Source: Trichodesmium erythraeum IMS101 (GTDB taxonomy: Bacteria > Cyanobacteriota > Cyanobacteriia > Cyanobacteriales > Microcoleaceae). From it: a DNA stretch of 32,000 nt. The notes beneath the pieces were generated by a model. It saw nothing but the letters and a program-made list of their open reading frames with translations, was not told where the DNA came from and did no database searches. The stretch covers positions 7,170,001 to 7,202,000 of the forward strand of contig NC_008312.1 of assembly GCF_000014265.1 (NCBI RefSeq). Reading direction: 5' to 3'. The position numbers were made by a program, and so were the translations under genes. Position 1 is the first letter of the stretch; each line of letters starts with the position of its first letter. Of this stretch, positions 3,562 through 26,481 are shown piece after piece.

Positions 3562-3886
3562 ATCAAATTTTAAGATTAATTAATTGGACAACACTCAGCA
3601 CTCAGGAATCAGTAGGATAATTTTTTTTTAGATTTAGAAAAATATCTCTTGCCGTCCTAAACAATTTATCCTTTGGAGTTCTCGGGTATTTTAACCCCAA
3701 GCTGCTAAAAGATATTAACTTAATTTCGACCCAAGAGACTAGCTGTTTGTGTTTTTGGCTCTCACCGACGTGAAACCCTGAGTAAAGTGAATGAATAGTA
3801 TTCCGTTACGGAAATCCTAAAAGTTGATAACTATTTAAAGATAGTAGTTTAGCCTTGTAGCCAAACTTTAGTACTTATTTTGTTTG

Positions 3887-5413
3887 TTATGTTTCCTTCC
3901 TACGGGTACTCAAGTCACCCAGTTTTTGGAATAAACCAAACTCTACTTGTTCCTCTAGGTCTGGGTCAATACCTGCAAACACATCGCGGAATAAGGTCCG
4001 GCATCCATGCCAAATATGACCGAAGAAGAATAGGAGAGCAAAACAAGCATGACCAAAAGTAAACCAACCACGAGTACTAGTTCGGAACACACCATCAGAG
4101 CCTAAAGTTTCTTGGTCAAATTCAAAAGGTTCACCAGTTTGGGCTTTACGAGCATACTTTTTAACATCGGCTGGGTTAGTAAAGGTTTGACTATCAAGTT
4201 CACCACCCAAGAAGCTAACTGTTACCCCCCGTTCCTCAAAACTATATTTTGACTCTGAACGACGAAAAGGAATATCAGCCTTTACTACACCTTCAGAATT
4301 GGTCAAAACTACTGGGAAAGTTTCAAAAAAGTTAGGTAAGCGACGTACAAATAATTCTTCACCATCCCTATCCTCAAATATAGGATGACCAAGCCAAGCT
4401 TGAGCTAAACCATCTCCATTATTCATAGGACCAACACGGAAAAGACCGCCTTTTGCTGGACTATTACCAACGTAGTCATAAAAGGCTAATTTTTCGGGGA
4501 TAGTTAACCAAGCTTCAGAGGGAGTTTTTCCTGCTACTATTTCAGCTTGAACACGACGATCAATTTCTTGCTGAAAGTAACTATTATCCCACTGATAACG
4601 AGTAGGGCCAAATAATTCTATAGGAGTAGCTGCACAGCCATACCACATTGTACCAGCTACAACAAAAGCTGCAAAGAAAACTGCTGCAATACTACTGGAA
4701 AGAACTGTTTCAATATTACCCATCCGCAAGGCTCTGTAGAGACGTTCTGGCGGTCTTACTGATAAGTGGAATAAACCAGCAATAATTCCCACAATTCCAG
4801 CAGCAATGTGGTGAGCAACAATTCCACCAGCATTAAATGGGTTAAATCCTTCTGGTCCCCATGATGGTGCTACTGGCTGGATCGAGCCTGTTAACCCATA
4901 AGGATCTGATACCCACATTCCTGGACCAAATACTCCGGTCAAATGGAAGGCCCCAAAGCCAAAGCAAAGTAAACCAGATAAGAATAAGTGAATGCCAAAC
5001 ATTTTTGGCAGGTCTAGAGCAGGATCTCCTGTACGTTGGTCAAAGAATAAATCTAAATCCCAGAAAACCCAATGCCATACAGCAGCTAGGAATAGCAAAC
5101 CAGAAAGAACGATATGAGCTGCTGCTACACCTTCAAAAGACCAGAAACCAGGGTTTGAAGCTACTTCTCCTGTAACACTCCAACCACCCCAAGATTGGGT
5201 AACACCTAGACGGGCCATGAATGGCATAACAAACATTCCCTGACGCCACATAGGGTTTAGCACTGGATCGCTAGGATCAAAGATTGCCAGTTCATAAAGG
5301 GCCATTGATCCGGCCCAACCTGCTACAAGAGCAGTGTGCATTAAATGCACGGATATTAGTCGTCCTGGATCATTCAGAACAACTGTATGTACACGATACC
5401 AAGGTAATCCCAT
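3887..5413 (-). CDS. psbB: Photosystem II CP47 chlorophyll apoprotein
   Basis: 508-aa ORF starting '[43 protein letters not shown]', full-length CP47. Confidence 0.97.
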
Positions 5414-5443: not shown

Positions 5444-5560
5444 CTGCTTTGTAAAACTGACACAAAGCGTTCAGTAAAGTAACTGTTTGATTTTTACTTC
5501 CTGCTTCTACGGTCACTGTCGGCAGCAGGACCTCCACAGGTAGTGACGGTCAAGCAGACC
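5444..5560 (-). promoter_or_regulatory. Conserved ~117-nt upstream block, copy B (upstream of psbB)
   Basis: See 1462..1578. The block ends 30 nt upstream of the psbB ATG. On the minus strand it contains two 'GACCGT' direct repeats 37 nt apart, the same spacing as the 'AACCGT' pair in copy A. Confidence 0.6.
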
Positions 5561-6049
5561 ATACCAATATTTCTGAAAACTTTTTTCTTTTGCTTGTTAT
5601 GCTCTCCGAAAAATAAATCGTCCCAAACATTAGTCCTATTATCAAGATTATTTCGGACAACAATATGGCCAAACTTACTAGATGAGGGCATAAAAATTAA
5701 TACTTTTTCAAGAATTGTATAAAGTTTTGAAGTTAATAGCAAGTGAATTGAAAAAGCATTTAGGGCACGGACATTGGTAAATCCTGTTTGCAGAGTATGG
5801 ACCTATGGCAGTTTAAGTGCTTATGGCTTTATGGTTGTGTCCATCTCTAATCAGAAGATACCAATTAATAGAGTGTTGGTTGACAAAGTTTGGGTCAGAG
5901 ATACTTGGCAATTGATATTTCGTTTTAATCGTAAAATTTTAGCCTACAGTGTTTGTGTTTGGTTAAATAATCATGGCCATTTTCCTTTAAGGTTTGAATA
6001 AATTGTTAGTTAATAAGTTTTACATTACGTAATACTTAATATTTTTCAC

Positions 6050-12358: not shown

Positions 12359-13666
12359 TTGAAAATTCTAGGAGTATCATCAGTGTTTGCCATAAATTTG
12401 CATTTCAAATATCTCAGAAAAATTATCACATTCCTAATTACAGTAGTGATAATATCAGGCTTAGTCAGTTGTAGCGATGACTTATATGAATCATCTCAAG
12501 TTCATTCTCAAAAATCTGTAACCACCTCTACCACCTCTAAAATATCTGAAGTTTCCCCACCGGAGATAATTCAACAACTGCGCCAAGGGATCAACAGATA
12601 CAAACCCCAATTAGCAATACAAAGTCCGCAGCCGGAGCAAATATTTGAAGACAACTATATTACTGTGCAACTCCAAGTCCAAGACTTACCTATATTCAAA
12701 TCAGACCTAGGCATAGGACCTTATATAGAAATTATCTTAGATAACAAACATTACACAAAAATCTATAATCTTAATGAATCCATTGTACTATCAGACTTAG
12801 AAGCAGGAACCCATACCCTCAGAGTTTTTGCCTGTAGTCCCTGGGATGAAAGTTTTAAGAATGAAGGTGCTTACGCTCAAACTACATTTCACATCTTTAC
12901 GAAAACTGCAAATAATAATCCCGCTCCAGACCTACCTTTGTTAACTTACAATAGTCCGGTAGGTACCTATGGTGCTGAACCTATCATGCTTGACTACTAC
13001 CTTACTAATATACAATTGCCCTCAATAGGGGGAGAATATCCTCAAGATGAAATAACTGATGGGCATCTTCGTGTTACTGTTAATGGGACTAGTTTCATAA
13101 CTGATCAGTGGCAAACAATATATTTACAAGGGTTCTATCCAGGAAAAAATTGGGTTAAGTTAGAATATATTGATAAATTAGGTAATCCAATTAATAATGT
13201 TTATAACAATACTGCTCATTTGATTACCTACAAACCAGATGGGGAAGATACTCTAAGCAAAATAATTCGAGGAGAAATTTCACTTAAGGAAGCGCTTAGT
13301 ATAGTTGATCAGGAATACATTTATAAGGAACCACAACTAGAAATAACTTCAGAAACAGAAGAAATATCTAGCGATGAGAAATTAGAAGTAGAAGACACTT
13401 TTGAATTAAAAACAGAAACTCCTATTGACCAGGAAGTAGAAGTAGAAGAAGTTTCTGTTGAACCAGAATTAGAAGAAGTTCCTACTAATGAAGAATTAGA
13501 GGAAATTCCCAACATGGAACCTACTACTGAGGAATTAGATGTAGAAGAAATTTTTGTTGAACCAGAATTAGAAGAAGTTCTTACAATTGAGCCTAAAACT
13601 GAGGAATTAGAATTAGAAGAAACTTTTTTTGAACTAGAAACAGAAAAAAATACTACTGATGAGTAG
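12359..13666 (+). CDS. Hypothetical lipoprotein with an acidic E-rich repeat C-terminus
   Basis: 435-aa ORF with a TTG start as given in the track. It has a lipoprotein-type signal ('KYLRKIITFLITVVIISGLVS|C'). The central domain has ordinary composition. The C-terminus has tandem repeats such as 'VEPELEEV.T..EP.TEEL.VEE.F'. I do not recognise the family. Confidence 0.7.
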   Translation: MKILGVSSVFAINLHFKYLRKIITFLITVVIISGLVSCSDDLYESSQVHSQKSVTTSTTSKISEVSPPEIIQQLRQGINRYKPQLAIQSPQPEQIFEDNYITVQLQVQDLPIFKSDLGIGPYIEIILDNKHYTKIYNLNESIVLSDLEAGTHTLRVFACSPWDESFKNEGAYAQTTFHIFTKTANNNPAPDLPLLTYNSPVGTYGAEPIMLDYYLTNIQLPSIGGEYPQDEITDGHLRVTVNGTSFITDQWQTIYLQGFYPGKNWVKLEYIDKLGNPINNVYNNTAHLITYKPDGEDTLSKIIRGEISLKEALSIVDQEYIYKEPQLEITSETEEISSDEKLEVEDTFELKTETPIDQEVEVEEVSVEPELEEVPTNEELEEIPNMEPTTEELDVEEIFVEPELEEVLTIEPKTEELELEETFFELETEKNTTDE

Positions 13667-14678: not shown

Positions 14679-15443
14679 TCAGGTATTAGTACTTTCAAAC
14701 AACCTGAGAATTATTTCTACATTATCAAATTCCCCAACAATTCTACGGACGGGAAGAGGCCAAACTCTTATCAAAGTAGGAGTTGCAGTAATTAGTTCTA
14801 CTTCAGCTTGTTCAGGATGTTGAAGGACATCTATTACTTTTAAAGTATAAGGAAGAGAAAGATATTCCTCTAATATTTGGTGAAGACTTTGAAGAGTCTG
14901 TTCAGTAGCAAAACTTTTACCAGATACAAATAAGTGGAGAACATAACCTTGAAACTTTGATTGTGAATCAATAGTAGACGTTGAGACTACCTGTGAAGTA
15001 GAATTGAGATTAATATCTTGTCGTTCAAGACATATAACAAAGTTATGATTTTCCCAGAGTTGAGGAAACTTGTCATAATAAGAAGAAACTACTATTGGAT
15101 TACAAAATTCCTCTGACCATGGAGCACATTGCCAAATCATCTCACCAGTATAAAAAATTGCATTAAGTAATGCCTGATATCTTAAGACTGGCATATAAGC
15201 TTCGGCAAAAACTTGGACTTCTTGAGTGTGAGGGTTTAGCCATTTATCAATAGTTGCAGTGTATCCAGGTATTAAGAAATGGGGTGGTTCAGTTAGTCCC
15301 AATACTGCTTGTAGCTCTAGACATAGGTGTAGATGCCATCGTTTTTTTTTGCTTGGGTCTATACAATAAATTAGATCTCCCCCTGGTGTAAACAAGGCAA
15401 TACCTTTGAATAACTGGGGAAATTTTAAAGGAGTCAGCTTCAA
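14679..15443 (-). CDS. Elongated KaiB-like protein (C-terminal KaiB/thioredoxin-like domain with a ~160-aa N-terminal extension)
   Basis: 254-aa ORF. The C-terminal 'YVLHLFVSGKSFATEQTLQSLHQILEEYL..PYTLKVIDVLQHPEQAEVELITATPTLIRVWPLPVRRIVGEF' matches the KaiB signature ('ATPTL....P.PVRRI.G'). The start is TTG in the track and the exact start is uncertain. Confidence 0.75.
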   Translation of the reverse strand: MKLTPLKFPQLFKGIALFTPGGDLIYCIDPSKKKRWHLHLCLELQAVLGLTEPPHFLIPGYTATIDKWLNPHTQEVQVFAEAYMPVLRYQALLNAIFYTGEMIWQCAPWSEEFCNPIVVSSYYDKFPQLWENHNFVICLERQDINLNSTSQVVSTSTIDSQSKFQGYVLHLFVSGKSFATEQTLQSLHQILEEYLSLPYTLKVIDVLQHPEQAEVELITATPTLIRVWPLPVRRIVGEFDNVEIILRLFESTNT

Positions 15444-16212: not shown

Positions 16213-17502
16213 TTAAATTCTGCCGCGTAGCATTTGAGACATTTCGTTTGGGGAAGGTGACTGATTTATTGCTATCTCTTCAGTGATTCTACCATCTCGA
16301 TAAAGATCATACAAAGACCTGTTCATAGTAGTCATGCCTTCATAAGTATCTTTAAGCATGATCTGCTGAATGTCTTCATACTGGTCTTTGAGAATATACT
16401 CTTTCACTACATCAGTATTAATCAAAATGTCATGGAAAGCTGCTCGTTTACCATCAGTAGTTTTACACAACAACTGAGCAATAATCGCTACCAGAATTTC
16501 TGAAAGAGCTAATTTAATTGCTGGTTGTTCTTCAGCAGAAAACATATCCAGAATACGAGTTATAGTTTTAACTGCACTGTTAGTGTGCAAAGTTCCCATC
16601 ACCAAGTGTCCTGTAGATGCTGCCTTAATGGCTATTCCTACGGTTTCCTTATCCCGAATTTCTCCAACTAGCATCAGGTCAGGATCTTGACGAAGAGCAC
16701 CTTTAAGGGCATTGAAGAATTTCAGAGTATGTCTACCTACTTCTCGGTGCTTGATCAAAGATTTCCGACTTTCGTGGACAAATTCTACAGGGTCTTCAAC
16801 AGTTATGATGTGATAAGGAAAAGTATCATTCATATAATCAATCATGGCTGCCATGGTAGTAGATTTACCAGAACCTGTTGGTCCTGTTACCAAAAGTAAT
16901 CCTTTATGGTAGTGGCAAACTTTCTTAAAAACTTCTGGCAGCCTGAGTTGATCCATCTTGAGAATTGTTGCACCAATAAGTCTTAAGACCATGGCCGGGC
17001 CGGCAAGAGAATCAAACAAGCTAATCCGTATTCGGACAAAACCTAGGTCAGCGGCACCGTCAAAGTCTAAATTTTCCTGAAAGACGCGAATTTCTTCATC
17101 TTTGAGAATTTCTCGCAGCCAACTCATAAAAGTGCCTAAGTCAGTCTCTGGATACTCAATTGGTATGAGGTCACCACGCTTGCGAAATCTTGGTATTTCA
17201 TTTACACCCAAGTGAATATCTGAAATTCCCTCTTTTTCAGCCCGCCGGACAATTTCTGTCAATCTTACTTGTCCAGGTGCAAGTTCTGGACTTAGAGGAG
17301 TTGCTCGTTGCTTTGGTACAGTTTCCTTTTGAGGAATGATTTCCCTAGAACTTGGAGGTGATGCTGGTGAAGAATTGGAAGGTTTTAGAGAAACTGCTGA
17401 TTGTTTTTTTACTCTTGGAGGTGGTGGAGCTGGGGGACGATATGTTAGATCACGGCTTCCTGATCGTGATGTAGGGGGAGGAGGTGGCGGTGTTTGTGTC
17501 AT
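16213..17502 (-). CDS. pilT: PilT-family type IV pilus retraction ATPase with a proline-rich N-terminal extension (PilT2-like)
   Basis: 429-aa ORF. It has Walker A 'GPTGSGKSTT', 'ITVEDPVEF', 'ALRQDPDLMLVGEIRD' and 'GHLVMGTLHTNSA'. The N-terminal ~75 aa are P/S-rich ('MTQTPPPPPPTSRS...PPAPPPPR'). Confidence 0.85.
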   Translation of the reverse strand: MTQTPPPPPPTSRSGSRDLTYRPPAPPPPRVKKQSAVSLKPSNSSPASPPSSREIIPQKETVPKQRATPLSPELAPGQVRLTEIVRRAEKEGISDIHLGVNEIPRFRKRGDLIPIEYPETDLGTFMSWLREILKDEEIRVFQENLDFDGAADLGFVRIRISLFDSLAGPAMVLRLIGATILKMDQLRLPEVFKKVCHYHKGLLLVTGPTGSGKSTTMAAMIDYMNDTFPYHIITVEDPVEFVHESRKSLIKHREVGRHTLKFFNALKGALRQDPDLMLVGEIRDKETVGIAIKAASTGHLVMGTLHTNSAVKTITRILDMFSAEEQPAIKLALSEILVAIIAQLLCKTTDGKRAAFHDILINTDVVKEYILKDQYEDIQQIMLKDTYEGMTTMNRSLYDLYRDGRITEEIAINQSPSPNEMSQMLRGRI

Positions 17503-17533: not shown

Positions 17534-20150
17534 ATATCAAATCTGGTTGAATACTTTTGATTATAGTTGGAGGAGATGGGGAGATTGAATGTTGAAGTAA
17601 TTATATAATTATCAAAATATATTATTCTGCCTATTTGTTGTGGCAAAATTCCATACTGAAAAAGTTGGGGAAAGTTGAATATTTGACAAGAGCACAAAGA
17701 ACTTAAAATAACTTAACTATTCTAAAAGAACTGCAAGGATAATCAAGTTGTCTTATGCAATTTTGGGCTGGTTACCAAGTATCTTCAACGAGGTTTTGCT
17801 CTGAGGCATTAGGAGCAAATTTTGTACAATTTATCTACCATTCTACTTTGGATTTTTCAGCTATTTTTTTGTTATTAAATCTTATCGAAATTCTGTCAAA
17901 TTATGATCATTGGCTCTATCCCGAAATATTGCTCATCTTTTTCTCTGCCTTGGATGCTGTAAATATTTCAATATTTTTCATGGTATTTTCAGTATTTCCA
18001 CTTCTTTTAAATATCAATAAATTCTTGGGCTTGATATTCTAAGCCACCAGAATAAGTAAGGCTTTTTTTTATTAGTGAAGTAGAATTTCTATTCTTCTAT
18101 CTGTTGCTCCCCAATCATAACCTCAAAGGTTTCCCTATATTAGATAACATTCAAAGGTCATAAACAATGTAGGCTTTCTGGGTTATATTTCTGGTTGCTA
18201 TTTTGTCAATTTATCCTGTCTAATTTTTTTTGCTTTCACTAATTAATTATTTTTATTGGCGTTCTTTTTGGGAGTTTTTTCAACTTCTAACCGCATTTTT
18301 CAGAGTCGTTATAATAACTTTGTAAAATATCACAAACTATATTAGGTGTATCATTTATGTAAATAGTTTTTTTCAGTCTCAAGTGTAAAATATTTACTTG
18401 TGCTCAATACCCATAAATCGTTTTATCTTTTTATACTGGCATTAATGTGATATGTTTATTCTTGATAGCTAAATTCTTAAACTTTCTATCCCTATAAAAA
18501 GTGCTAGGGGTTTCAATTTTACGCTAGAAACTGTTATAAATATTTAATATTTATTTGACTTTATATAAGGATTTATATACAAAATAATTTTTACTGCCAA
18601 GACTCTTTTAATTTTTTTTGCTATCGATGTTTGACTTGTAAAATTATCTACTTCATCTATAATATTTATTTTTTGTATTTTTTCTAGATATGTTCTTCTT
18701 ACTATTATATCTTTTGCGACCAATATGAGATTAGTATATATATGGTAAGAAATGGTATTAAACCTCTGATATATACGAGTTATATATTTATTAAGACTGA
18801 CTTAACTACAGTTTTGTTTGATTTTGAGGTTCATACCATTTCTTAATCTCAAGCTTTTGATGATACAGCCATCTTTAAATACTACTATTCCATTTTTCGT
18901 GTATGTGTTTGAATGTTGATTTATATTTTTTTTGACAGACGGAGTTTTGTTAAGTGTAAATATCTGATTTTCATTAGCTGATTTTTTCTGATTTTTAGTA
19001 TAGTTTTTTGATGAAGAAGGATACTCAAAAAATATAGTTAAAGATAAAAGGATAAACGTCACAAAACATAGTTTTTTTAATAATAAAATAATCATTCTAA
19101 GAACCTGGATTAAATTAATTTAACTGAATATTAATTACCTTAACTAATAATTGGCCTGACTTTAAAGTAGGCCTATAAAGGATTTATTTCTATCAATATA
19201 CTCTATCCCTTTTTCACCTATTTTATCTACGATAATAATACCTAAAAATAAAAGCTATCTAGGTATATTAATATAACTTTTCTACGAAACATTCTCTAAA
19301 AAAAAATATTTTTAAGAGACTCTCTTAGAGATTTTTTTGTCACTCAATATGAAAGAGAAAGTATGAACAGCAAGCAATATAGACTATTGCATATATTAAG
19401 TGCATAAGCAAAATTAATTACATATTCTGTTCGATGTGTGATCAAGCACTTTTTTTTAGCTTTTGAAGTCATATTTTTCAGTATTCAGGCATCTCCTACT
19501 TCAATTGATTGATATTTAATAAATTTCCTATTTCTATTATATTTGATTTTGTTGAGTATGTCGACAACCAAAATATTTATAGTTTTATAAATTCTATTTA
19601 TCTAATTTATTCAGTAAAACATTCCTAGTACTAATTTACACTTTAAAAATAAAAAATATAGTTTTTTAATAAAAATAAAAAATAGATTATTATCAAAATT
19701 AATCAATATTTAAATATTAATATTTACCTTTGCTATTCTATAAATTAATTCTTCTTTTTGAATTTATTAATCTTCTACTATTTATTTGTTTATTTATGCT
19801 TAAAAAGCTGACAAGTTATTGTTGTTTTTTTGAATGGCTATCTATAAAACAAGTAATGCTTTAAATAAAATCAATTTTTATATAAAATATTCAAGTAATT
19901 ACTTTTTTATTATTTATTTTTTAGTGATTATAGTCTATTTTTTTACCTATTACTCCCATTAATTATAAATTTAATTCTTCTTATTTTCATCCTTTATTAC
20001 CTCATTTATAATTTTTTTTATTTTTTTGTTGTCTATTTGCGCATATTTATTTCCTAAGTATGATGCATAAAATTAATAAATTACTAAGTTTAGCTGATCA
20101 TCTTTTTCCTGTCTGGCTTCCAATAATAATTGGAACCTAATTCCTCTTTC

Positions 20151-21008: not shown

Positions 21009-22118
21009 ATGCCAGTCAAGCGAAAATCTACTAATAGTAAACCCCAAATAACTAACAAACAAAAAGAAGCTGCTGAAGCTGAGATTAGGGAAAAGCAAAA
21101 AGTTATTGATTATCGAACAACAGAATATCCAGTAGAAGTTCTTGTTCAGAAATATATGGAAGGAAGAGAAAATGATACTAACGAGTTATTTATTCCTGAT
21201 TATCAAAGAGAAGAAGCCTGGCAGGAAAAAGAGCAGTCAAAGTTTATTGAATCTGTACTTTTAGGATTACCAGTACCTCCTATATTTGTTGCAGATATTT
21301 ACGACCAAGAAAATGACTTAGGGCGCTTAGAAATAGTAGATGGTACGCAACGCATTCGAACTCTATCTAAATTTTCTAATAATGAACTGACTTTAAGAGG
21401 ATTAGAAAAATTAGATAAGCTGAATGATTTCACTTTTACTGATTTACCACTTCCTCGTCAAAGACGTTTCAATAGAAGTACCATTAGGATGATTCAACTA
21501 ACAGAGAAAGCGGATGAGGAAGCACGACGAGATATGTTTGAAAGAATTAATACTGGTAGTGTTGTTTTAAATGACATGGAAAAACGTAGAGGAATACAAC
21601 GCGGACCTGTTCTAAATTGGATTGATAAATTATCAAAGAATCCCAAATTTCTAGAGCTATGTCCGTTTTCTGAAGCTCTAATTCGGAGGCGAGAACCTGA
21701 AGAATTTGTATTGCGTTTTTTCGCATATCTAAATAAATATCAGGAGTTTGAACACAGAGTAAATGTATTCCTCAATGATTATTTAAAAGAACAGGATGAG
21801 AAGAATAAGAATAATAAATTTTACCAGAATAAAATGGAGAAGGAATTTAAGTTAATGCTAGATTTTGTGGAAAAGTATTTCCCTGATGGGTTTAAAAAAG
21901 GCAAAAACTATAACTCAGTTCCCCGGATTAGGTTTGAAAGTATTTCTGTAGGTGTTGCACTTGCTTTAAGGGAAGAAAAAAATCTTAAACCAAAATCAAC
22001 CGACGAGTGGCTAAATTCCCAAGAGTTTAAAAAATACACTACTTCTGATAGTAGTAACTCTAGAGTGAAAGTTATTCGACGTATTGAATATGTTAGAGAT
22101 CAACTATTAGGTAAATAA
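21009..22118 (+). CDS. DUF262 (ParB/Srx-like, GmrSD N-terminal type) domain protein lacking a fused nuclease domain
   Basis: 369-aa ORF. It has the N-terminal DUF262 signature 'FIPDYQREEAWQEKEQSKFIESVLLGLPVPPIFV...LEIVDGTQRIRTL' (DGQQR-type motif) and 'MFERINTGSVVLNDMEKRRG'. I see no DUF1524/His-Me-finger-like motif in the C-terminal half. Confidence 0.8.
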   Translation: MPVKRKSTNSKPQITNKQKEAAEAEIREKQKVIDYRTTEYPVEVLVQKYMEGRENDTNELFIPDYQREEAWQEKEQSKFIESVLLGLPVPPIFVADIYDQENDLGRLEIVDGTQRIRTLSKFSNNELTLRGLEKLDKLNDFTFTDLPLPRQRRFNRSTIRMIQLTEKADEEARRDMFERINTGSVVLNDMEKRRGIQRGPVLNWIDKLSKNPKFLELCPFSEALIRRREPEEFVLRFFAYLNKYQEFEHRVNVFLNDYLKEQDEKNKNNKFYQNKMEKEFKLMLDFVEKYFPDGFKKGKNYNSVPRIRFESISVGVALALREEKNLKPKSTDEWLNSQEFKKYTTSDSSNSRVKVIRRIEYVRDQLLGK

Positions 22119-22819
22119 TGGGAAGAATATCATTTGTAATTCAAGATTTTAATGAACTTTCTGAAGAGGTAAGTAAATATTTTATTTTCTTGCAAGATTT
22201 AGAGCAAGGAAAAGTAAAATTAATCAAAGAAATTCAAGGAAATAATAAAGCTAACAAAATAGACGTTGAGTTAGAAAATACTCTAAAAGCAAGTGCTTAT
22301 TTATTACTTTACAATTTAATAGAATCTACTATGAAAAATGCTATAGAAGCAATCTTTCAGGAACTACAAGAGAAAGATGTTTCTTTTGATAAGATTAGAC
22401 CTGAATTAAAGAAAATTATTTTGGTTAATCTGAAAGGTAGAAACCCTGATAAAATTTTAGAAAAAATTCAGGACATATCTCTTGATATTGTTTCCATTGG
22501 ATTTAATAAAGAAGAACTATTTACTGGAAATATTGATAGTAAATTGATTAGAGAAACAGCTAAAAAATATGGATTTGATTCGCAAACAGATGACAAAAAA
22601 AGAACTAATGATAAAAATTCATATCTACTTCTAATTAAGAATAATAGAAATGATTTAGCTCATGGAAATAGACCTTTTGGCGATGTAGGAAAGTCGAAAA
22701 CTGCTGATGAACTGATAGAAATTAAAAAGACAATAGTCGAATATTTAAAAGGAATATTGGAGAATATTGAAACATATATAGATAATGAGGAATACTTAGA
22801 CTCAACAAATACTCCCTAA
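22118..22819 (+). CDS. HEPN-domain protein (resembles the MAE_28990/MAE_18760 HEPN-like nuclease family)
   Basis: 233-aa ORF. Its ATG overlaps the upstream stop ('TAATG' at 22116-22120). The Rx4H HEPN motif 'R-NDLA-H' is at residues 177-182 (nt 22646-22663), in a predicted helical protein. Family recall is from memory and was not searched. Confidence 0.7.
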   Translation: MGRISFVIQDFNELSEEVSKYFIFLQDLEQGKVKLIKEIQGNNKANKIDVELENTLKASAYLLLYNLIESTMKNAIEAIFQELQEKDVSFDKIRPELKKIILVNLKGRNPDKILEKIQDISLDIVSIGFNKEELFTGNIDSKLIRETAKKYGFDSQTDDKKRTNDKNSYLLLIKNNRNDLAHGNRPFGDVGKSKTADELIEIKKTIVEYLKGILENIETYIDNEEYLDSTNTP

Positions 22820-23853
22820 CTTATTTCTTGAACATGTTTAAGAATACTTTTTGCTACTACTTGACCTAACTTTACAGGGACAGCATTCCCAATTAAACGC
22901 CCTATATCTGTAAAAACAAATGATTTATTAGGAGGAAAAAATTGGTATTTATGAGGAAAAGTTTGCAACAATGCTGCTTCTCTGAGGGATATGGCTCTAT
23001 CTTGTTCGGGGTGTCCAAATCGACCATTACCAAAACCAAAGCACTGAGTCGTTATAGTTGGACTGGGACTATCCCATTCCATCCTGCCGTAAACCGATGG
23101 ATATGATTTACCACTACTCTTAGTATGGCATTTAGCTATTAAGTTTTTGGGCCAGTCTCGCCAAGTGCCTCCTGGTTTAGAAGCACGAATACGACGTAGA
23201 TTCAGTGCTGAAAGTTTGCTACATTGATGAAGTGGATCTATTTTCGATGATTGACCTGCACTCAGAGCTTCAAGATGCTCAATAGTCTTTCGTACAGTTT
23301 TGTAATTATCCTGATCGCAATTTGGGGGAATTAAATCTATATTGCCAAACTTGGAGGCAAAAAGTACTAACCGTTTACGATTTTGAGGTATACCGTAGTC
23401 TTGACAGTTAACACGATAAAATGTGATGAAGTATTTGAACTTTTTGAGTTTAGTAATAAATTCCTCAAAAACTTGATTTTGTTGCAACTGTGGTACATTT
23501 TCCATAGTCACAATATCTGGCATACATTGTTTGATAAGACGGGCAAAATAATAGAGAAGCTTCCATTTTGAGGAGCTGTTTCTGTAGCGCTTGGAGTAAT
23601 TAGAAAATGGTTGGCATGGAGAGCATCCGGCTAAAACTTTAAGGTGACATATTGGAAAATGCTTTGCTAGCTCCATACTCTCAATGTCTTCAACGCTTTT
23701 TAGTATAAACTTGGCTTTATTGTTATACTCATAAGGAAACTTACATACGGGATCAATATCATAACCAACATTTACAGGAAGACCAGCTTTCTCAAAGCCA
23801 TGAGTTAACCCACCTGCTCCGCAAAATAAGTCTATCGCAGAAATGCCAATCAT
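22816..23853 (-). CDS. DNA (cytosine-5)-methyltransferase
   Basis: 345-aa ORF with the full m5C-MTase motif set: I 'DLFCGAGGL', IV 'GCSPCQPFS', VI 'TMENVPQL', VIII 'QNRKRLVLFA', 'ISLREAALLQTFP' and X 'GNAVPVKL'. A 'GAGG' Shine-Dalgarno lies about 6 nt upstream of the ATG. Its stop (22816-22818) overlaps the HEPN gene stop (22817-22819). Confidence 0.92.
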   Translation of the reverse strand: MIGISAIDLFCGAGGLTHGFEKAGLPVNVGYDIDPVCKFPYEYNNKAKFILKSVEDIESMELAKHFPICHLKVLAGCSPCQPFSNYSKRYRNSSSKWKLLYYFARLIKQCMPDIVTMENVPQLQQNQVFEEFITKLKKFKYFITFYRVNCQDYGIPQNRKRLVLFASKFGNIDLIPPNCDQDNYKTVRKTIEHLEALSAGQSSKIDPLHQCSKLSALNLRRIRASKPGGTWRDWPKNLIAKCHTKSSGKSYPSVYGRMEWDSPSPTITTQCFGFGNGRFGHPEQDRAISLREAALLQTFPHKYQFFPPNKSFVFTDIGRLIGNAVPVKLGQVVAKSILKHVQEIS

Positions 23854-24288
23854 TATTTACCTCTACAGATTTTATATAAGTCAGGCTTAAATTATAATTC
23901 AATCAAGTTACTAATTTCAAGTTCAAATAAGAGGGAAGGTAATTAGAAAACTGCCTCATTCAATCATAAGTAATTTTTTCATACTGTATTTTTACAACAT
24001 AAAATGCTTGATAAGTAGCGGCACATTCGTAGTTTTGTTTCTGAGAGTGAAAAGCTTGAGAATATAAAGTTTATTCTCAAAAAACGATCAGCTTATCTGA
24101 GTGAAAAGTATTACAGAAATTTCCTGACAACATCTACAGTTCTTTGGAGAAAGTTTCTGATATTGAGGTTCCTGAAAGCCAAATCTCACAATAGTTATTC
24201 CCATAATTTCCCACTGCGGGTGTAAAAGGAATTTACTTATAAATATAATTATATCTACAGGACTACCAAATAATCTATATTACTCCTA

Positions 24289-25916
24289 CTAACGACCAGA
24301 ACGAAGAATACTAATAATTAACCACAACCTAAGAAAACTAGTTGTTGCAAATAAAGCTTCACTTAATACAGATAGCTGACTACTTTGAGAACCGATAGTT
24401 ACAATGGCAACAACAATAGTTAATTAACTTACAACTACACTAAAGGATAATCTATTGGCTGAATTATCTATACTATGACGCAAAGGTTCAATTCTTGTAG
24501 AGTCAAATTCCACTTTAATGTTTCGGAAGTAAGTCTATCTAAAAATAAGTCTAGCTCGCGAGGGAACTTTAAAGATAAATTCTTCAGATCAATAGCTGTT
24601 CTTAAGAAAGTTTGTACCAGATCATCCCCTAATAACTGTCGGCAAAATAAATCAGTCATTAATGGTTTAATCTCATCTAAAAGATTAAGTTGGAAATAAA
24701 AACTATGAGCGATCCCTTCTAAGTTTGCTAAAGTTTTGGAAAATAAACCTAAATTACTTGGTAATTTAATTTTGTTGTGACAACATAATTTTAATATGTC
24801 ATAAAATACTTGATAAAGGTTGATTTCAGACAAGCTGAGGTTATAATATTTTCGCAATATTTTGCTGTAATCATTTTTCAATTTAGCTAAGTTTGAGCCA
24901 ATATCTACTTCTACCATTTGTAGAGTTAACTGAGTACACCTTTGAGCATCTAAGTCAATGATCCCCAATAGTAGTTCTGTTAAATGCTGTTGACTCTTAG
25001 GGTCGAAGCGACTGAGTATTCCACAGTCTAGCAGAGCAATACACCCATCTTCTAAATAAAATATATTGCTTTGATGGGGGTCGACTTGAAAAAAACTGTT
25101 GAAATAAAGTTGTTGAAAGAAAGCACGGCATAATAAATGGGAAAGTGCTTGCTTTTCTGAATTTATACCCCCATTATAGTTAGCACCTTTGACTTTTGTC
25201 GATAAAATTGGTTGATCATGAAGCCATTCCAGAATTAAAAGCTTTGGGGTGGTTAGTGCCCAATATACTTTCAGAACCATAATTTGCTTGGAGTCAAATC
25301 ATTTACTTGTGGATAGGTTCTGAGGTAGTTCGTCAGTATAACTACCTTCTTGAATAAAATTCAGTTCTTATCGCAAAGTATCACCAAATTCTTGAGCTAC
25401 AGAAAGAATATCATAACTTTTTTCAAATTTTGTAAATGAGACTAACTCACCTAGACCTTTGAGCAAAGCAATATCTTTATCAACTATTTTATCAATGCCT
25501 GGACGTTTAACTTTGAGAGCTACTTCCCTGCAGTCTTTTAAAGTGGCTTTATAAGATTGAGCAATAGAACCTCCTGCTACACATTAAGTATTAATGTAGC
25601 TAAATATTTCTTCTAGAGTTTGGGAGAGTTATTGACGAATTAAGGTTTCGACTTCAGACCAAGATATTGGTGGTACATCTGCCTGTAAACTTGACAATGT
25701 ATTGATGTACTTTGTTGGCAATAGGCCTGGACAGGTGCTCAGTAGCTGACCAAGTTTTACATGTATTGGGCCTAAATCTACAAATATATTGCGCAGAACT
25801 GCTAGTGTTGGTAAGTCTGGTTGACCAGTTTGGCCTCCTGTAACGAGAGTTTTTATGTAGTCCCAACCATTGCGGAGGAAATTTTCCACTATTTCTGCTT
25901 GACTAGAGCTATGCAA
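24289..25916 (-). pseudogene. ABC1/UbiB (AarF)-family atypical kinase, pseudogenised
   Basis: - The N-terminal piece reads 'LRNIFVDLGPIHVKLGQLLSTCPGLLPTKYINTLSSLQADVPP'.
- The middle piece 'VAGGSIAQSYKATLKDCREVALKVKRPGIDKIV' follows a stop codon in its own frame and lies outside the track ORFs.
- The catalytic piece reads 'FQVDPHQSNIFYLEDGCIALLDCGILSRF'.
- A C-terminal hydrophobic piece, 'LTIVVAIVTIGSQSS...LRLWLIISILRSGR*', lies in another frame (24289-24425).
- At least three frame breaks or stops are present. Confidence 0.75.
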
Positions 25917-26481
25917 GGCTAGGTAATACTTGGCCTCCCTCTAGTGGTGTTGATATTTAATTCAGGTTTAAAGAAAATTTAATTATTTTTATATGTATAG
26001 GATAGTTTTGACAAAAAAACTGATATTTTTTTAATTTTTAAGATATGTATTATACCACTTTTTTTATGATTTGTCAATGATTTTTGATATTTTTGATAGT
26101 AGTTATAGGTTTAACTATGTGGGATGGGAAGCTGGAACTATAAAGGTTATGTGGTGCTAGGGAACACTCAGATGTATGAAGTTAAAAGGGTAGTCTTCCT
26201 CGTGTCAGGGTAGATGTATGTAAACAATGCTACTTCGGGTATATACCTTTTCTCCTTGACCAAAATAATTACAATAGACTACCATGAAAATTAACTACCA
26301 CCACCCATAAGGTTTGAGGGTAGTCTGTACTAATTGATTAATAACTGAGATGACTTTTAACTTGATGAATAGTATTCATTGTCACAAAAATCAAATTAGA
26401 AATTAAGAATCTAGACAGATTTATCCTTTACATAATACTCAAAGTTTTTTACATTAACTTTAGAATCAGTTTAAGATTAAA

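Follow-up and report, generated by a model that had tools for sequence, protein, structure and literature searches.

A cassette of three intact, tightly packed genes occupies positions 21009-23853 of a 32,000-nucleotide stretch of the Trichodesmium erythraeum IMS101 chromosome (contig NC_008312.1, positions 7,170,001 to 7,202,000; hereafter the window) and encodes a DUF262 protein, a HEPN-domain protein and a C5 cytosine DNA methyltransferase (MTase). It is our view, held with a confidence only a little better than even, that this cassette is a methylation-coupled DUF262-HEPN defence system, which follows the logic of restriction-modification (R-M) and has RNA cleavage as its output. Cassettes of this kind have been predicted before, and the principal new lead is that two residues in the C-terminal domain of the DUF262 protein, R308 and N350, behave in sequence comparisons as a putative MTase-dependent determinant. 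The parts of the cassette are as follows, in window coordinates.

21009-22118, plus strand: gene 1, an NsnA-like DUF262/GmrSD_N protein of 369 amino acids (aa)
21198-21209, plus strand: DYQR motif of gene 1 (aa 64-67), from the translation
21339-21353, plus strand: DGTQR motif of gene 1 (aa 111-115), from the translation; counterpart of the DGQQR nucleoside triphosphate (NTP)-binding motif in GmrSD, BrxU and SspE
21340-22100, plus strand: segment of gene 1 sharing its ancestry with the MTase (codons ~111-364), from sliding-window nucleotide identity and synonymous divergence (dS)
21726-21728, 21921-21923, 21930-21932 and 22056-22058, plus strand: the C-terminal residues Y240, P305, R308 and N350 of gene 1, respectively, which track the MTase in the class comparison
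21744-21842, plus strand: charged stretch of gene 1 (aa 246-278) that is hypervariable and more weakly conserved than any other region in the family
22116-22120, plus strand: TAATG stop/start overlap of genes 1 and 2, read from the sequence
22118-22819, plus strand: gene 2, a MAE_28990-family HEPN protein of 233 aa, the predicted RNase effector
22646-22663, plus strand: Rx4H catalytic motif RNDLAH of gene 2 (R177-H182), from translation and alignment
22816-22819, both strands: overlapping convergent stop codons (HEPN TAA at 22817-22819; MTase TAG on the minus strand at 22816-22818)
22816-23853, minus strand: gene 3, the C5 cytosine DNA methyltransferase of 345 aa

Domain content of the three genes

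The three open reading frames (ORFs) of 369, 233 and 345 codons are much longer than expected by chance in DNA of ~30% GC, and since the same three-gene geometry recurs in dozens of genomes as well, they are clearly not fortuitous. A first-pass annotation, made from the letters of the window alone, had described the close packing, the TAATG overlap, the overlapping convergent stops, the motifs DYQR, DGTQR and RNDLAH and a full set of 5-methylcytosine (m5C) MTase motifs; all of its coordinates were reproduced to the base and all of its motifs are present in the translations. Its DUF262, HEPN and C5-MTase assignments were equally borne out by the profile searches, as the Pfam matches of the three proteins pass the curated cut-offs against which they were judged (7.9e-27, 3.6e-39 and 4.8e-56, respectively).

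For gene 1, the Pfam match to GmrSD_N/DUF262 (PF03235) covers aa 56-194 only. The PADLOC model of NsnA (PDLC03877, 1.9e-56) aligns from aa 13 to 364 with positions 23-377 of its 385, and the PD-T4-2_A model (PDLC04027, 1e-31) aligns from aa 59 to 361 with positions 51-356 of its 363; the SspE and HEC-06 models of PADLOC give further but weak matches (1e-3 to 1e-5), limited to aa ~57-120. The protein also falls within PHROG phrog_2598 (7.6e-122), a group annotated 'unknown function', and NCBIfam has no model for either gene 1 or gene 2. To judge from these profiles, gene 1 combines a DUF262 domain of ParB/Srx fold, at its N-terminus, with an apparently helical C-terminal domain of its own. The first-pass annotation had supposed that the nuclease half of a GmrSD-type protein was replaced here by the separate HEPN subunit, a proposal that has to be abandoned, because gene 1 is not a GmrSD half and instead matches NsnA end to end, its own C-terminal domain included. 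The associated claim that the DUF262 protein carries no recognisable fused nuclease stands: DUF1524 gave no Pfam match in any of the three proteins at E values up to 1, and profile searches for the PD-(D/E)XK, HNH, GIY-YIG and PLD nuclease folds found none in gene 1 or gene 2. A weak match to the PADLOC model 'REase_II' (1.7e-5) is restricted to the DUF262 region.

Both motifs of the DUF262 domain are conserved throughout the homologues checked, every one of which retains D-G-x-Q-R, with T, S or A as the middle residue, and x-Y-Q-R, with D, E or S as the first. The role of DGQQR-type motifs in NTP binding is taken from the literature on DUF262 proteins, and gene 1 may presumably bind NTP in the same manner. 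An AlphaFold2 model of gene 1, built from shallow alignments, reached a pLDDT of 71 and a pTM of 0.49. Its best Foldseek matches in the PDB were CTP-ParB, Noc and BrxU, all weak (E at least 0.016), and the DUF262 profile retrieved from the PDB only one 'DUF262 domain-containing protein' (20yv, E = 0.15).

Gene 2 matches Pfam HEPN_MAE_28990 (PF18737) with 135.6 bits against a cut-off of 26.8, over positions 6-211 of the 211-position profile, and HEPN_RiboL-PSP at 4.8e-13. Its orthologues are named 'MAE_28990/MAE_18760 family HEPN-like nuclease' by NCBI, and its PHROG group (phrog_3846, 7.1e-58) is annotated 'unknown function'. At 50% identity, the HEPN family falls into 1,539 clusters, whose 150 best representatives are without exception stand-alone proteins. 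In our family alignment (A1), residues N176, R177, N178, L180, A181, H182 and G183 are invariant, and the RN.LAH motif is found in homologues from a Moraxella phage, Rhodococcus and Polaromonas as well. The AlphaFold2 model of gene 2 is all-helical, with aa 102-163 predicted at low confidence, and a Foldseek search of this model against the PDB returned nothing meaningful, no match having an E value below 0.016.

Gene 3 aligns with the whole of the Pfam DNA_methylase profile (PF00145, positions 2-324 of 324) and matches TIGR00675 dcm (7e-37) as well as the PADLOC models MTase_II (1.3e-90) and DrmMII (5.5e-88). The motifs FCGAGG (aa 10-15), PCQ (aa 79-81), ENV, QNRKR and GNAVP are all present, and the catalytic Cys80 is encoded at nucleotides (nt) 23614-23616. 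Orthologues of the MTase are 68-84% identical across cyanobacteria. Its best solved relative is M.HaeIII, in the N-terminal half only, and DNMT1 and M.HhaI also match in the catalytic core. The PDB sequence search gave no match in the target-recognition domain that would be informative as to the target site. The published Trichodesmium m5C methylome describes methylation in a CpG context and five MTases, with motifs that are not assigned to genes.

Conservation of the pair and its co-variation with the methyltransferase

Homologous loci were collected by combined pattern and tblastn searches, with one genome per species, which yielded a HEPN relative in 358 genomes; the detailed neighbourhood counts refer to the best 80 loci, all of them cyanobacterial. 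In these loci the pairing is strict. The DUF262 gene lies directly upstream of the HEPN gene in all 80, and the two genes overlap by their stop and start codons in 60 (45 of the ATGA type, 14 of the TAATG type and one longer). In the window, the DUF262 stop (TAA, 22116-22118) has one base in common with the HEPN start (ATG, 22118-22120), and this TAATG arrangement suggests translational coupling of the two genes. Linkage was assessed in the 76 loci whose downstream sequence reaches 1.2 kb or more. An intact, convergent and orthologous C5-MTase (E 1e-160 to 1e-204) abuts the HEPN gene in 38 of them, and in 26 of these 38 the junction of overlapping stops is identical to that of the window.

The same linkage is found far outside the cyanobacteria. 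Eight (pro)viral contigs of 38-56% GC encode HEPN proteins 29-36% identical to that of the window, and the DUF262 gene is located upstream of HEPN in every one of them (E 1e-99 to 1e-146); all seven of these contigs with enough flanking sequence carry a C5-MTase, convergent and downstream in four, upstream and in the same direction in three. The convergent trio is likewise present on a Klebsiella plasmid, on the Rhodococcus plasmid pRB98 and in Moraxella phage Mcat24. In the P2-like Escherichia phage P2_4B2 (NC_049387.1, 29078-31979), the trio is situated at the accessory end of the genome, next to replication gene A, and its MTase is annotated as 234 aa owing to one frameshift, with homology running to aa 343. 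The genes of this phage trio are annotated as hypothetical or in generic terms. Escherichia coli and Salmonella IncF plasmids, which carry the pair without an MTase, are the sole exception among the distant loci with enough flank. Overall, the trio ranges over Cyanobacteria, Proteobacteria, Actinomycetota and phages, and it is encoded by plasmids and prophages.

A similar result is obtained from the side of the MTase. When orthologues of Dolichospermum and Aerosakkonema were taken as independent starting points, the trio was found again, flanked by glyS/murD or by unrelated genes, and it also contains all sampled close orthologues on contigs that extend beyond the gene (the contigs of one orthologue, P0340, stop just past it, leaving its neighbourhood unreadable). 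Taken together with the co-variation described below, the neighbourhoods uphold the first-pass proposal that the MTase is a genuine partner of the pair, in 38 of 76 loci and in the distant loci, with the qualification that the partnership is not obligatory. There is also a third architecture, seen in about ten loci (L009, L037, L043, L058, L062, L071, L074, L075, L076 and L079, representing six Microcoleus species and others), which consists of a short DUF262 protein (aa ~8-182) followed after ~50-120 nt by an intact HEPN gene. The C-terminal domain is missing from this short form, and an MTase is present in none of these loci.

The C-terminal domain of the full-length DUF262 protein co-varies with the MTase. 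In a tree of the cyanobacterial loci, MTase-linked and MTase-less DUF262 proteins fall into separate groups. When distant sequences were added, the resulting tree, a crude neighbour-joining reconstruction, placed the MTase-linked state as ancestral and paraphyletic, with the cyanobacterial MTase-less clade nested inside it. The two classes are told apart by a cluster of positions in the C-terminal domain (Y240F, P305T, R308K, A311S, I312L and N350S). Among them, R308 and N350 are invariant in 33 of 33 assessable cyanobacterial MTase-linked loci, in two further cyanobacterial loci and in 12 distant ones, an invariance that spans Actinomycetota to Cyanobacteria, over which the HEPN protein is at most 36% identical to that of the window. 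Both residues are replaced in three independent MTase-less lineages, by K/S in the cyanobacterial clade, by W/T in L064 and by F/H on the E. coli IncF plasmids. Furthermore, the Polaromonas plasmid pPNAP06 (NC_008762.1) has the R/N signature and no MTase in its PLSDB gene table, and an MTase was predicted for it blind and then confirmed by tblastn as a full-length gene convergent with HEPN (3677-4705, minus strand, aa 4-343, E 3e-118).

Ancestry within the window co-varies in the same manner. In a sliding-window comparison, nt 21340-22100 are 79-94% identical to loci L007 and L008 versus 61-78% to L001 and L002, two Trichodesmium metagenome-assembled genomes (MAGs), whereas the HEPN gene of the window displays the reverse pattern, 82-93% to L001/L002 versus 71-79% to L007/L008. 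Against L001/L002, dS is 1.1-1.2 in the 3' part of the DUF262 gene, compared with 0.29-0.35 in its 5' part and 0.25-0.27 in the flanking pilT-like gene, which served as the evolutionary baseline. At the aa level, the MTase is 79-81% identical to L007/L008, as are the 3' two-thirds of DUF262. The window cassette is a mosaic, in which the 3' part of DUF262 and the MTase have one ancestry and the HEPN gene between them has another. In L001 and L002, the DUF262 allele is of the MTase-less type and only C-terminal remnants of the MTase remain beside the HEPN stop.

A natural contrast is provided by the cultured strain T. erythraeum 21-75 (GCA_000963755.3), whose locus is 99.4% identical to the window. 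There, the MTase is frameshifted (316 aa) and HEPN carries E146* plus an indel, at sites corresponding to window positions 22553, 22592 and 22936, and DUF262 is intact. This strain is a natural double knock-out of effector and methylase.

A proposed mechanism and its alternatives

Based upon these features, the following sequence of events can be proposed. The MTase would mark host DNA, and the NsnA-like DUF262 protein would scan DNA, with its ParB/DUF262 domain acting as an NTP-binding switch and its C-terminal helical domain making contact with the DNA. The methylation state of the MTase target site would be recognised by R308 and N350, together with Y240 and P305. DNA devoid of the host mark, whether from phage or plasmid, would switch the sensor, and the switched sensor would release or activate the coupled HEPN RNase, leading to translation arrest and abortive infection. 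The logic of 'unmethylated DNA = non-self' is favoured because R308 and N350 have been replaced after each loss of the MTase and because the lesions in strain 21-75 affect the MTase and HEPN jointly. A role in defence would be in keeping with the relation to PD-T4-2 and PD-λ-5, two validated E. coli anti-phage systems discussed below, and with the location of the family on plasmids and in prophages and phages. The R-M-like logic with a HEPN output suggested by the first-pass annotation is accordingly still plausible, and its components of RNase activity, self-marking and defence are best worded as predictions. A more specific proposition, which we put forward tentatively and would not call probable, is that the cassette is a DNA-methylation-gated RNase with no DNase in its 'restriction' arm, of which the MTase-less and PD-T4-2-like pairs would be derivatives with a reader retuned to some other cue.

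A number of observations weigh against this reading of the cassette. Firstly, in ~37 of the 76 assessable loci an intact pair stands among housekeeping genes with no DNA MTase beside it; given these loci, the family can sense something other than this methyl mark. Their flanking genes include those for ABC1 kinase, ClpB, BrkB, aconitase, ArgRS and signal peptidase, and the remaining neighbours are housekeeping genes as well or RNA/small-molecule methyltransferases. An adjacent N6_N4 DNA methylase (PF01555, 2.7e-39) is found only in L054 (7754-8737), L060 (7719-8744) and L066 (4732-5739), on the same strand as HEPN and directly after it. These are related heterocystous cyanobacteria (Rivularia, a Nostocales MAG and Calothrix) with the MTase-less F/T/K signature in DUF262, and as their flanking genes are common to all three, the methylase was probably acquired in a single event. 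Secondly, the association between signature and MTase is partly phylogenetic, with three or four independent transitions only. Thirdly, locus L025, from a third-party MAG in which an assembly artefact is possible, retains only aa 4-75 of the MTase (5506-5721) beside an intact HEPN gene and a DUF262 protein with the Y/P/R/N signature. Under strict R-M logic such a locus should kill its host, save where the MTase was lost only recently, the site is protected by another MTase or the assembly is in error. Fourthly, no PADLOC model matches gene 2, that of PD-T4-2_B included, apart from weak CARF_HEPN matches in a search extending to E values of 1, and structural support is weak for gene 1 (Foldseek E at least 0.016) and gene 2 (model pLDDT 62) alike. 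Lastly, the HEPN effector of the window itself may be decaying. Relative to L001/L002, its ratio of nonsynonymous to synonymous substitution rates (dN/dS) is 1.07-1.29, at a dS of 0.10-0.12, which is indistinguishable from neutral (p = 0.89), and the protein departs from the family at 11 of 88 conserved positions, with R177, N178 and H182 kept.

This last point leads to the alternative that the window cassette is a relic, with intact ORFs, a HEPN gene no longer under selection and no defence exerted, which we regard as rather unlikely. By the same comparison as used for HEPN, the flanking pilT-like gene has a dN/dS of 0.18-0.24 at a dS of 0.25-0.27. Among the departures of the HEPN protein, K185R, S186P and E189D lie close behind the Rx4H motif, and the protein has a 2-aa insertion as well. 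Versus 99%-identical Tara Oceans contigs, the ratio of nonsynonymous to synonymous differences is 16:3 in DUF262, 7:0 in HEPN and 1:1 in the MTase. In strain 21-75 both HEPN and the MTase are broken, and the neighbouring ABC1 kinase gene of the window is a pseudogene. What argues against a relic is that all three ORFs are intact both in the window and in the independent Tara Oceans contigs, in which HEPN is 97-99% identical to that of the window (99% for the 21-75 fragment), that the catalytic R177, N178 and H182 are retained and that the MTase is strongly constrained, with a dN/dS of 0.13-0.17 versus L007, L008 and L045 in addition to its 1:1 ratio within the population. The dN/dS of DUF262 versus L007/L008 is 0.28. 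Moreover, nine of the 16 nonsynonymous DUF262 differences fall within aa 246-278 (E246K, E248K, D257N, E264K, N266S, N269D, F271S, N274K and K278E) and are mostly changes of charge. A clustered, charge-swapping excess of this sort is also a product of arms-race diversifying selection, and the excess of nonsynonymous change in HEPN and DUF262 could be due to diversifying selection or relaxed constraint alike.

It is less likely that the cassette is a two-layer 'RM + Abi' (abortive infection) system on the model of PrrC, in which DUF262 would be the restriction DNase and HEPN a latent RNase, freed when a phage neutralises the first layer. Such an arrangement was proposed for R-M-linked HEPN proteins by Anantharaman et al. 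(2013), who call the partner a 'ParB nuclease', and the conserved MTase linkage and tight DUF262-HEPN coupling also fit it. It is opposed by the failure to detect a nuclease domain or motif in gene 1, by the division of labour in characterised DUF262 proteins, where DUF262 is the NTPase or sensor and DUF1524 cleaves, and by the best structural matches of gene 1, which are the CTP-switch proteins ParB and Noc and not nucleases. In addition, the pair persists without an MTase in about half of the loci, where a classical R subunit of unchanged specificity would be expected to kill the cell.

Slightly more doubtful again is a licensing arrangement similar to that of SspE, in which the C-terminal domain would bind the m5C of the host and thereby set the NTPase state or location of the sensor, the infection being the trigger and the mark resembling a cofactor. 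In its favour, the DUF262 NTPase of SspE is stimulated, and the effector activated, by the phosphorothioate modification that marks self. The strictly conserved arginine, which is lost along with the MTase, may be an m5C-contacting residue of the type known from methyl-CpG readers, where an arginine takes part in 5mC-Arg-G contacts. L025, in which the pair has outlasted the destruction of the MTase, would be tolerated under licensing and fits it better than the methylation-gated reading proposed above. By contrast, loss of the mark should cause the licensed pair to decay, and instead the MTase-less clade is intact and has a fixed F/T/K/S signature in 25 species; the joint inactivation of MTase and HEPN in 21-75 fits relief from toxicity better.

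Finally, the MTase being merely an independent neighbour (an orphan epigenetic enzyme or the remnant of another R-M system) beside an autonomous PD-T4-2-like pair with a cue unrelated to methylation is very improbable: such an account would be in line with the MTase-less pairs among housekeeping genes, with PD-T4-2 functioning without an MTase, with the several C5-MTases and dynamic m5C methylome of Trichodesmium and with a candidate promoter, suggestive only, of the MTase's own, but it is at odds with the linkage of one orthologous MTase clade across phyla and phages through rearrangements of gene order, with the presence in the trio of all sampled close orthologues that have a readable flank, with the conservation of the exact overlapping-stop junction and with the co-variation of DUF262 residues and ancestry with the MTase.

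The wider relevance of the cassette stems from the fact that DUF262/ParB-fold sensors are widespread among anti-phage systems, including GmrSD, BrxU, SspE, PD-T4-2, Menshen and Dazbog. The natural contrasts of this family (MTase present or absent, full-length or N-terminal-only sensor, R308/N350 kept or replaced) lend themselves to specific point-mutant and binding tests of the methylation link. If the methylation-coupled reading is correct, the cassette would represent a form of R-M in which RNA is cleaved instead of DNA, and the natural R308K/N350S variants would provide a switch with which to dissect self/non-self discrimination in DUF262 systems lacking a nuclease, such as PD-T4-2, Menshen and Dazbog. 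For Trichodesmium, an ecologically important nitrogen fixer, it is relevant that one of its C5-MTases belongs to a defence-type cassette and is not purely an epigenetic regulator, and that this cassette differs from strain to strain and is in part decaying.

Chromosomal setting and relation to known systems

When examining the surroundings of the cassette, three further features are pertinent.

16213-17502, minus strand: pilT-like T2SSE ATPase, a syntenic neighbour (Pfam T2SSE, 1.9e-51)
23891-23920, minus strand: promoter-like TTGAAA-18-TATAAT, 11 of 12 consensus matches, 38 nt upstream of the MTase start; the best match of a consensus scan
24292-25922, minus strand: ABC1-kinase pseudogene, a syntenic neighbour outside the system (tblastn homology; Pfam ABC1 on a 270-aa fragment)

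The site at 23891-23920 is a candidate promoter for the MTase alone and is suggestive only, as the scan of the region for promoter and terminator consensus sequences gave no more matches than shuffled sequence. The pilT-like protein is 88-92% identical to that encoded upstream of the cassette in L001-L003 and L005. The ABC1 pseudogene has 70-78% aa identity by tblastn to the intact ABC1 genes of L003-L008, L019 and L020, which in the syntenic loci of Okeania and Dapis encode a kinase of ~555-600 aa, and its reading frame is broken by an in-frame stop codon at a point between 25280 and 25629 and by a frameshift near 24490. L001 has lost the whole ABC1 gene, along with most of the MTase.

The gene order pilT-like, cassette, ABC1 kinase is common to Trichodesmium, Okeania and Dapis, in MTase-plus and MTase-minus variants alike, and the window as a whole is core chromosome, with rpsA, nrdR, psbB, psaB, psaA, a KaiB-domain gene, the pilT-like gene and a glnA-like gene. 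The cassette site is a long-resident locus that exchanges alleles and not an island. The AT-rich gap and the disrupted ABC1 gene on which the first-pass annotation had based its suggestion of an accessory island are both real; the island itself is ruled out by the core, syntenic flanks, and searches of the whole window for tRNA genes and Rfam families found none, just as a repeat search of the 3.5-kb AT-rich gap gave only low-complexity chance repeats.

The AT-rich stretch (~17.5-21 kb, GC 0.20-0.29) is not empty. It holds a 97-aa ORF at 18802-19095 (minus strand), which aligns at 65% identity with a portion of a 173-aa frame in L003 and whose position is occupied by a called gene in the Tara Oceans contigs. 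Coding density is low throughout the window, whose 32 kb hold only 16 ORFs of 100 aa or more. Two other ORFs lie in or beside AT-rich sequence: a 435-aa ORF at 12359-13666 (plus strand) without a Pfam match, and a 254-aa protein at 14679-15443 (minus strand) with a C-terminal KaiB domain only (aa 171-245) and an N-terminal extension of ~170 aa.

As for known systems, the closest is the operon predicted by Anantharaman, Makarova, Burroughs, Koonin and Aravind in 2013 (Biol Direct 8:15, Table 1), which combines a MAE_28990 HEPN gene with ParB and DNA-methylase genes. The family is named after a cyanobacterial gene, of which gene 2 is a cyanobacterial orthologue; the HEPN family is the same (PF18737, 3.6e-39) with a conserved Rx4-6H motif, and so are the partners, a ParB-fold (DUF262) gene upstream and a DNA methylase, such that nothing structural differs. 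The one discrepancy is that the 2013 paper refers to the ParB partner as a nuclease and no nuclease motif is detectable in gene 1. That paper devotes one table line to the operon along with a generic proposal of 'multi-pronged R-M + HEPN' systems, in which R-M-linked HEPN proteins act as PrrC-like second-line RNases, and it contains no experiments on it. In our literature search, MAE_28990 was mentioned by this paper only, and neither a mechanistic study of a DUF262-HEPN system since 2023 nor experimental work on this exact family was found. The first-pass opinion that the arrangement lacks experimental characterisation consequently holds for the exact family; as regards novelty it does not, since the arrangement was already described in 2013 and its relatives PD-T4-2 and PD-λ-5 have been validated.

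PD-T4-2 of E. coli ECOR65 ('DUF262, HEPN') consists of two coding sequences in 1.54 kb and was validated against T4 by Vassallo et al. (2022), its deletion from native ECOR65 restoring T4 plaquing. Like the window cassette, it has a DUF262 gene followed by a small HEPN gene; gene 1 matches PD-T4-2_A (1e-31), and the top HHpred families of PD-T4-2B, HEPN_RiboL-PSP (97.8%) and HEPN_MAE_28990 (96.9%), are the two matched by gene 2. Unlike the window cassette, it has no MTase and its HEPN protein is ~165 aa rather than 233 aa. Furthermore, gene 1 scores higher to NsnA and gene 2 lacks a PD-T4-2_B match, as do the enterobacterial HEPN homologues. PD-T4-2 is a sister family of the cassette and not the same family.

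PD-λ-5, from a prophage of E. coli ECOR7 ('ParB/HEPN, methyltransferase'), was validated in the same study with broad protection and read by its authors as RM + Abi. It was cloned in a host lacking mrr, and because its cloning required such a host, its MTase is evidently active. A ParB fold, a HEPN domain and a DNA methyltransferase are united in one compact module in both systems, with ParB and HEPN fused in PD-λ-5 and encoded by separate coupled genes in the window. PD-λ-5 models are absent among the PADLOC matches of genes 1 and 2, and the relation is one of architecture and not of demonstrated homology.

The sensor itself is most similar to that of Menshen (NsnABC; Millman 2022), in which NsnA comprises a ParB-DUF262 domain and a DNA-binding 'ParBDB' domain (Li et al. 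2025, NAR) and whose loci sometimes neighbour solitary methylases. NsnA is the best match of gene 1, which is therefore the same two-domain sensor, whereas the NsnB ATPase and NsnC (an inactive PIN domain plus nuclease) are absent from the window and the effector is a stand-alone HEPN protein encoded right after the sensor. GmrSD, BrxU and SspE, defence proteins that sense DNA modification, share with gene 1 an N-terminal DUF262 domain with the DGxQR motif; they differ in having a DUF1524 His-Me nuclease, for which the cassette has no counterpart, and each is a single polypeptide, directed against modified DNA or responsive to a phosphorothioate self mark, that has no cognate C5-MTase as partner. 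PrrC-EcoprrI, in which a HEPN anticodon nuclease is restrained by a type Ic R-M system, resembles the cassette in that a HEPN RNase is tied genetically and functionally to methylation-based DNA defence, and differs in possessing its own ABC-type NTPase domain and a complete type Ic hsdMSR system, versus DUF262 and a type II-like C5-MTase here. With type II R-M, the cassette has a cognate MTase in common, and an endonuclease with a recognised nuclease fold is what it lacks. In sum, this is a kind of cassette that is already known, predicted for its family in 2013 and validated for architectural relatives, of which the window encodes one more cyanobacterial member.

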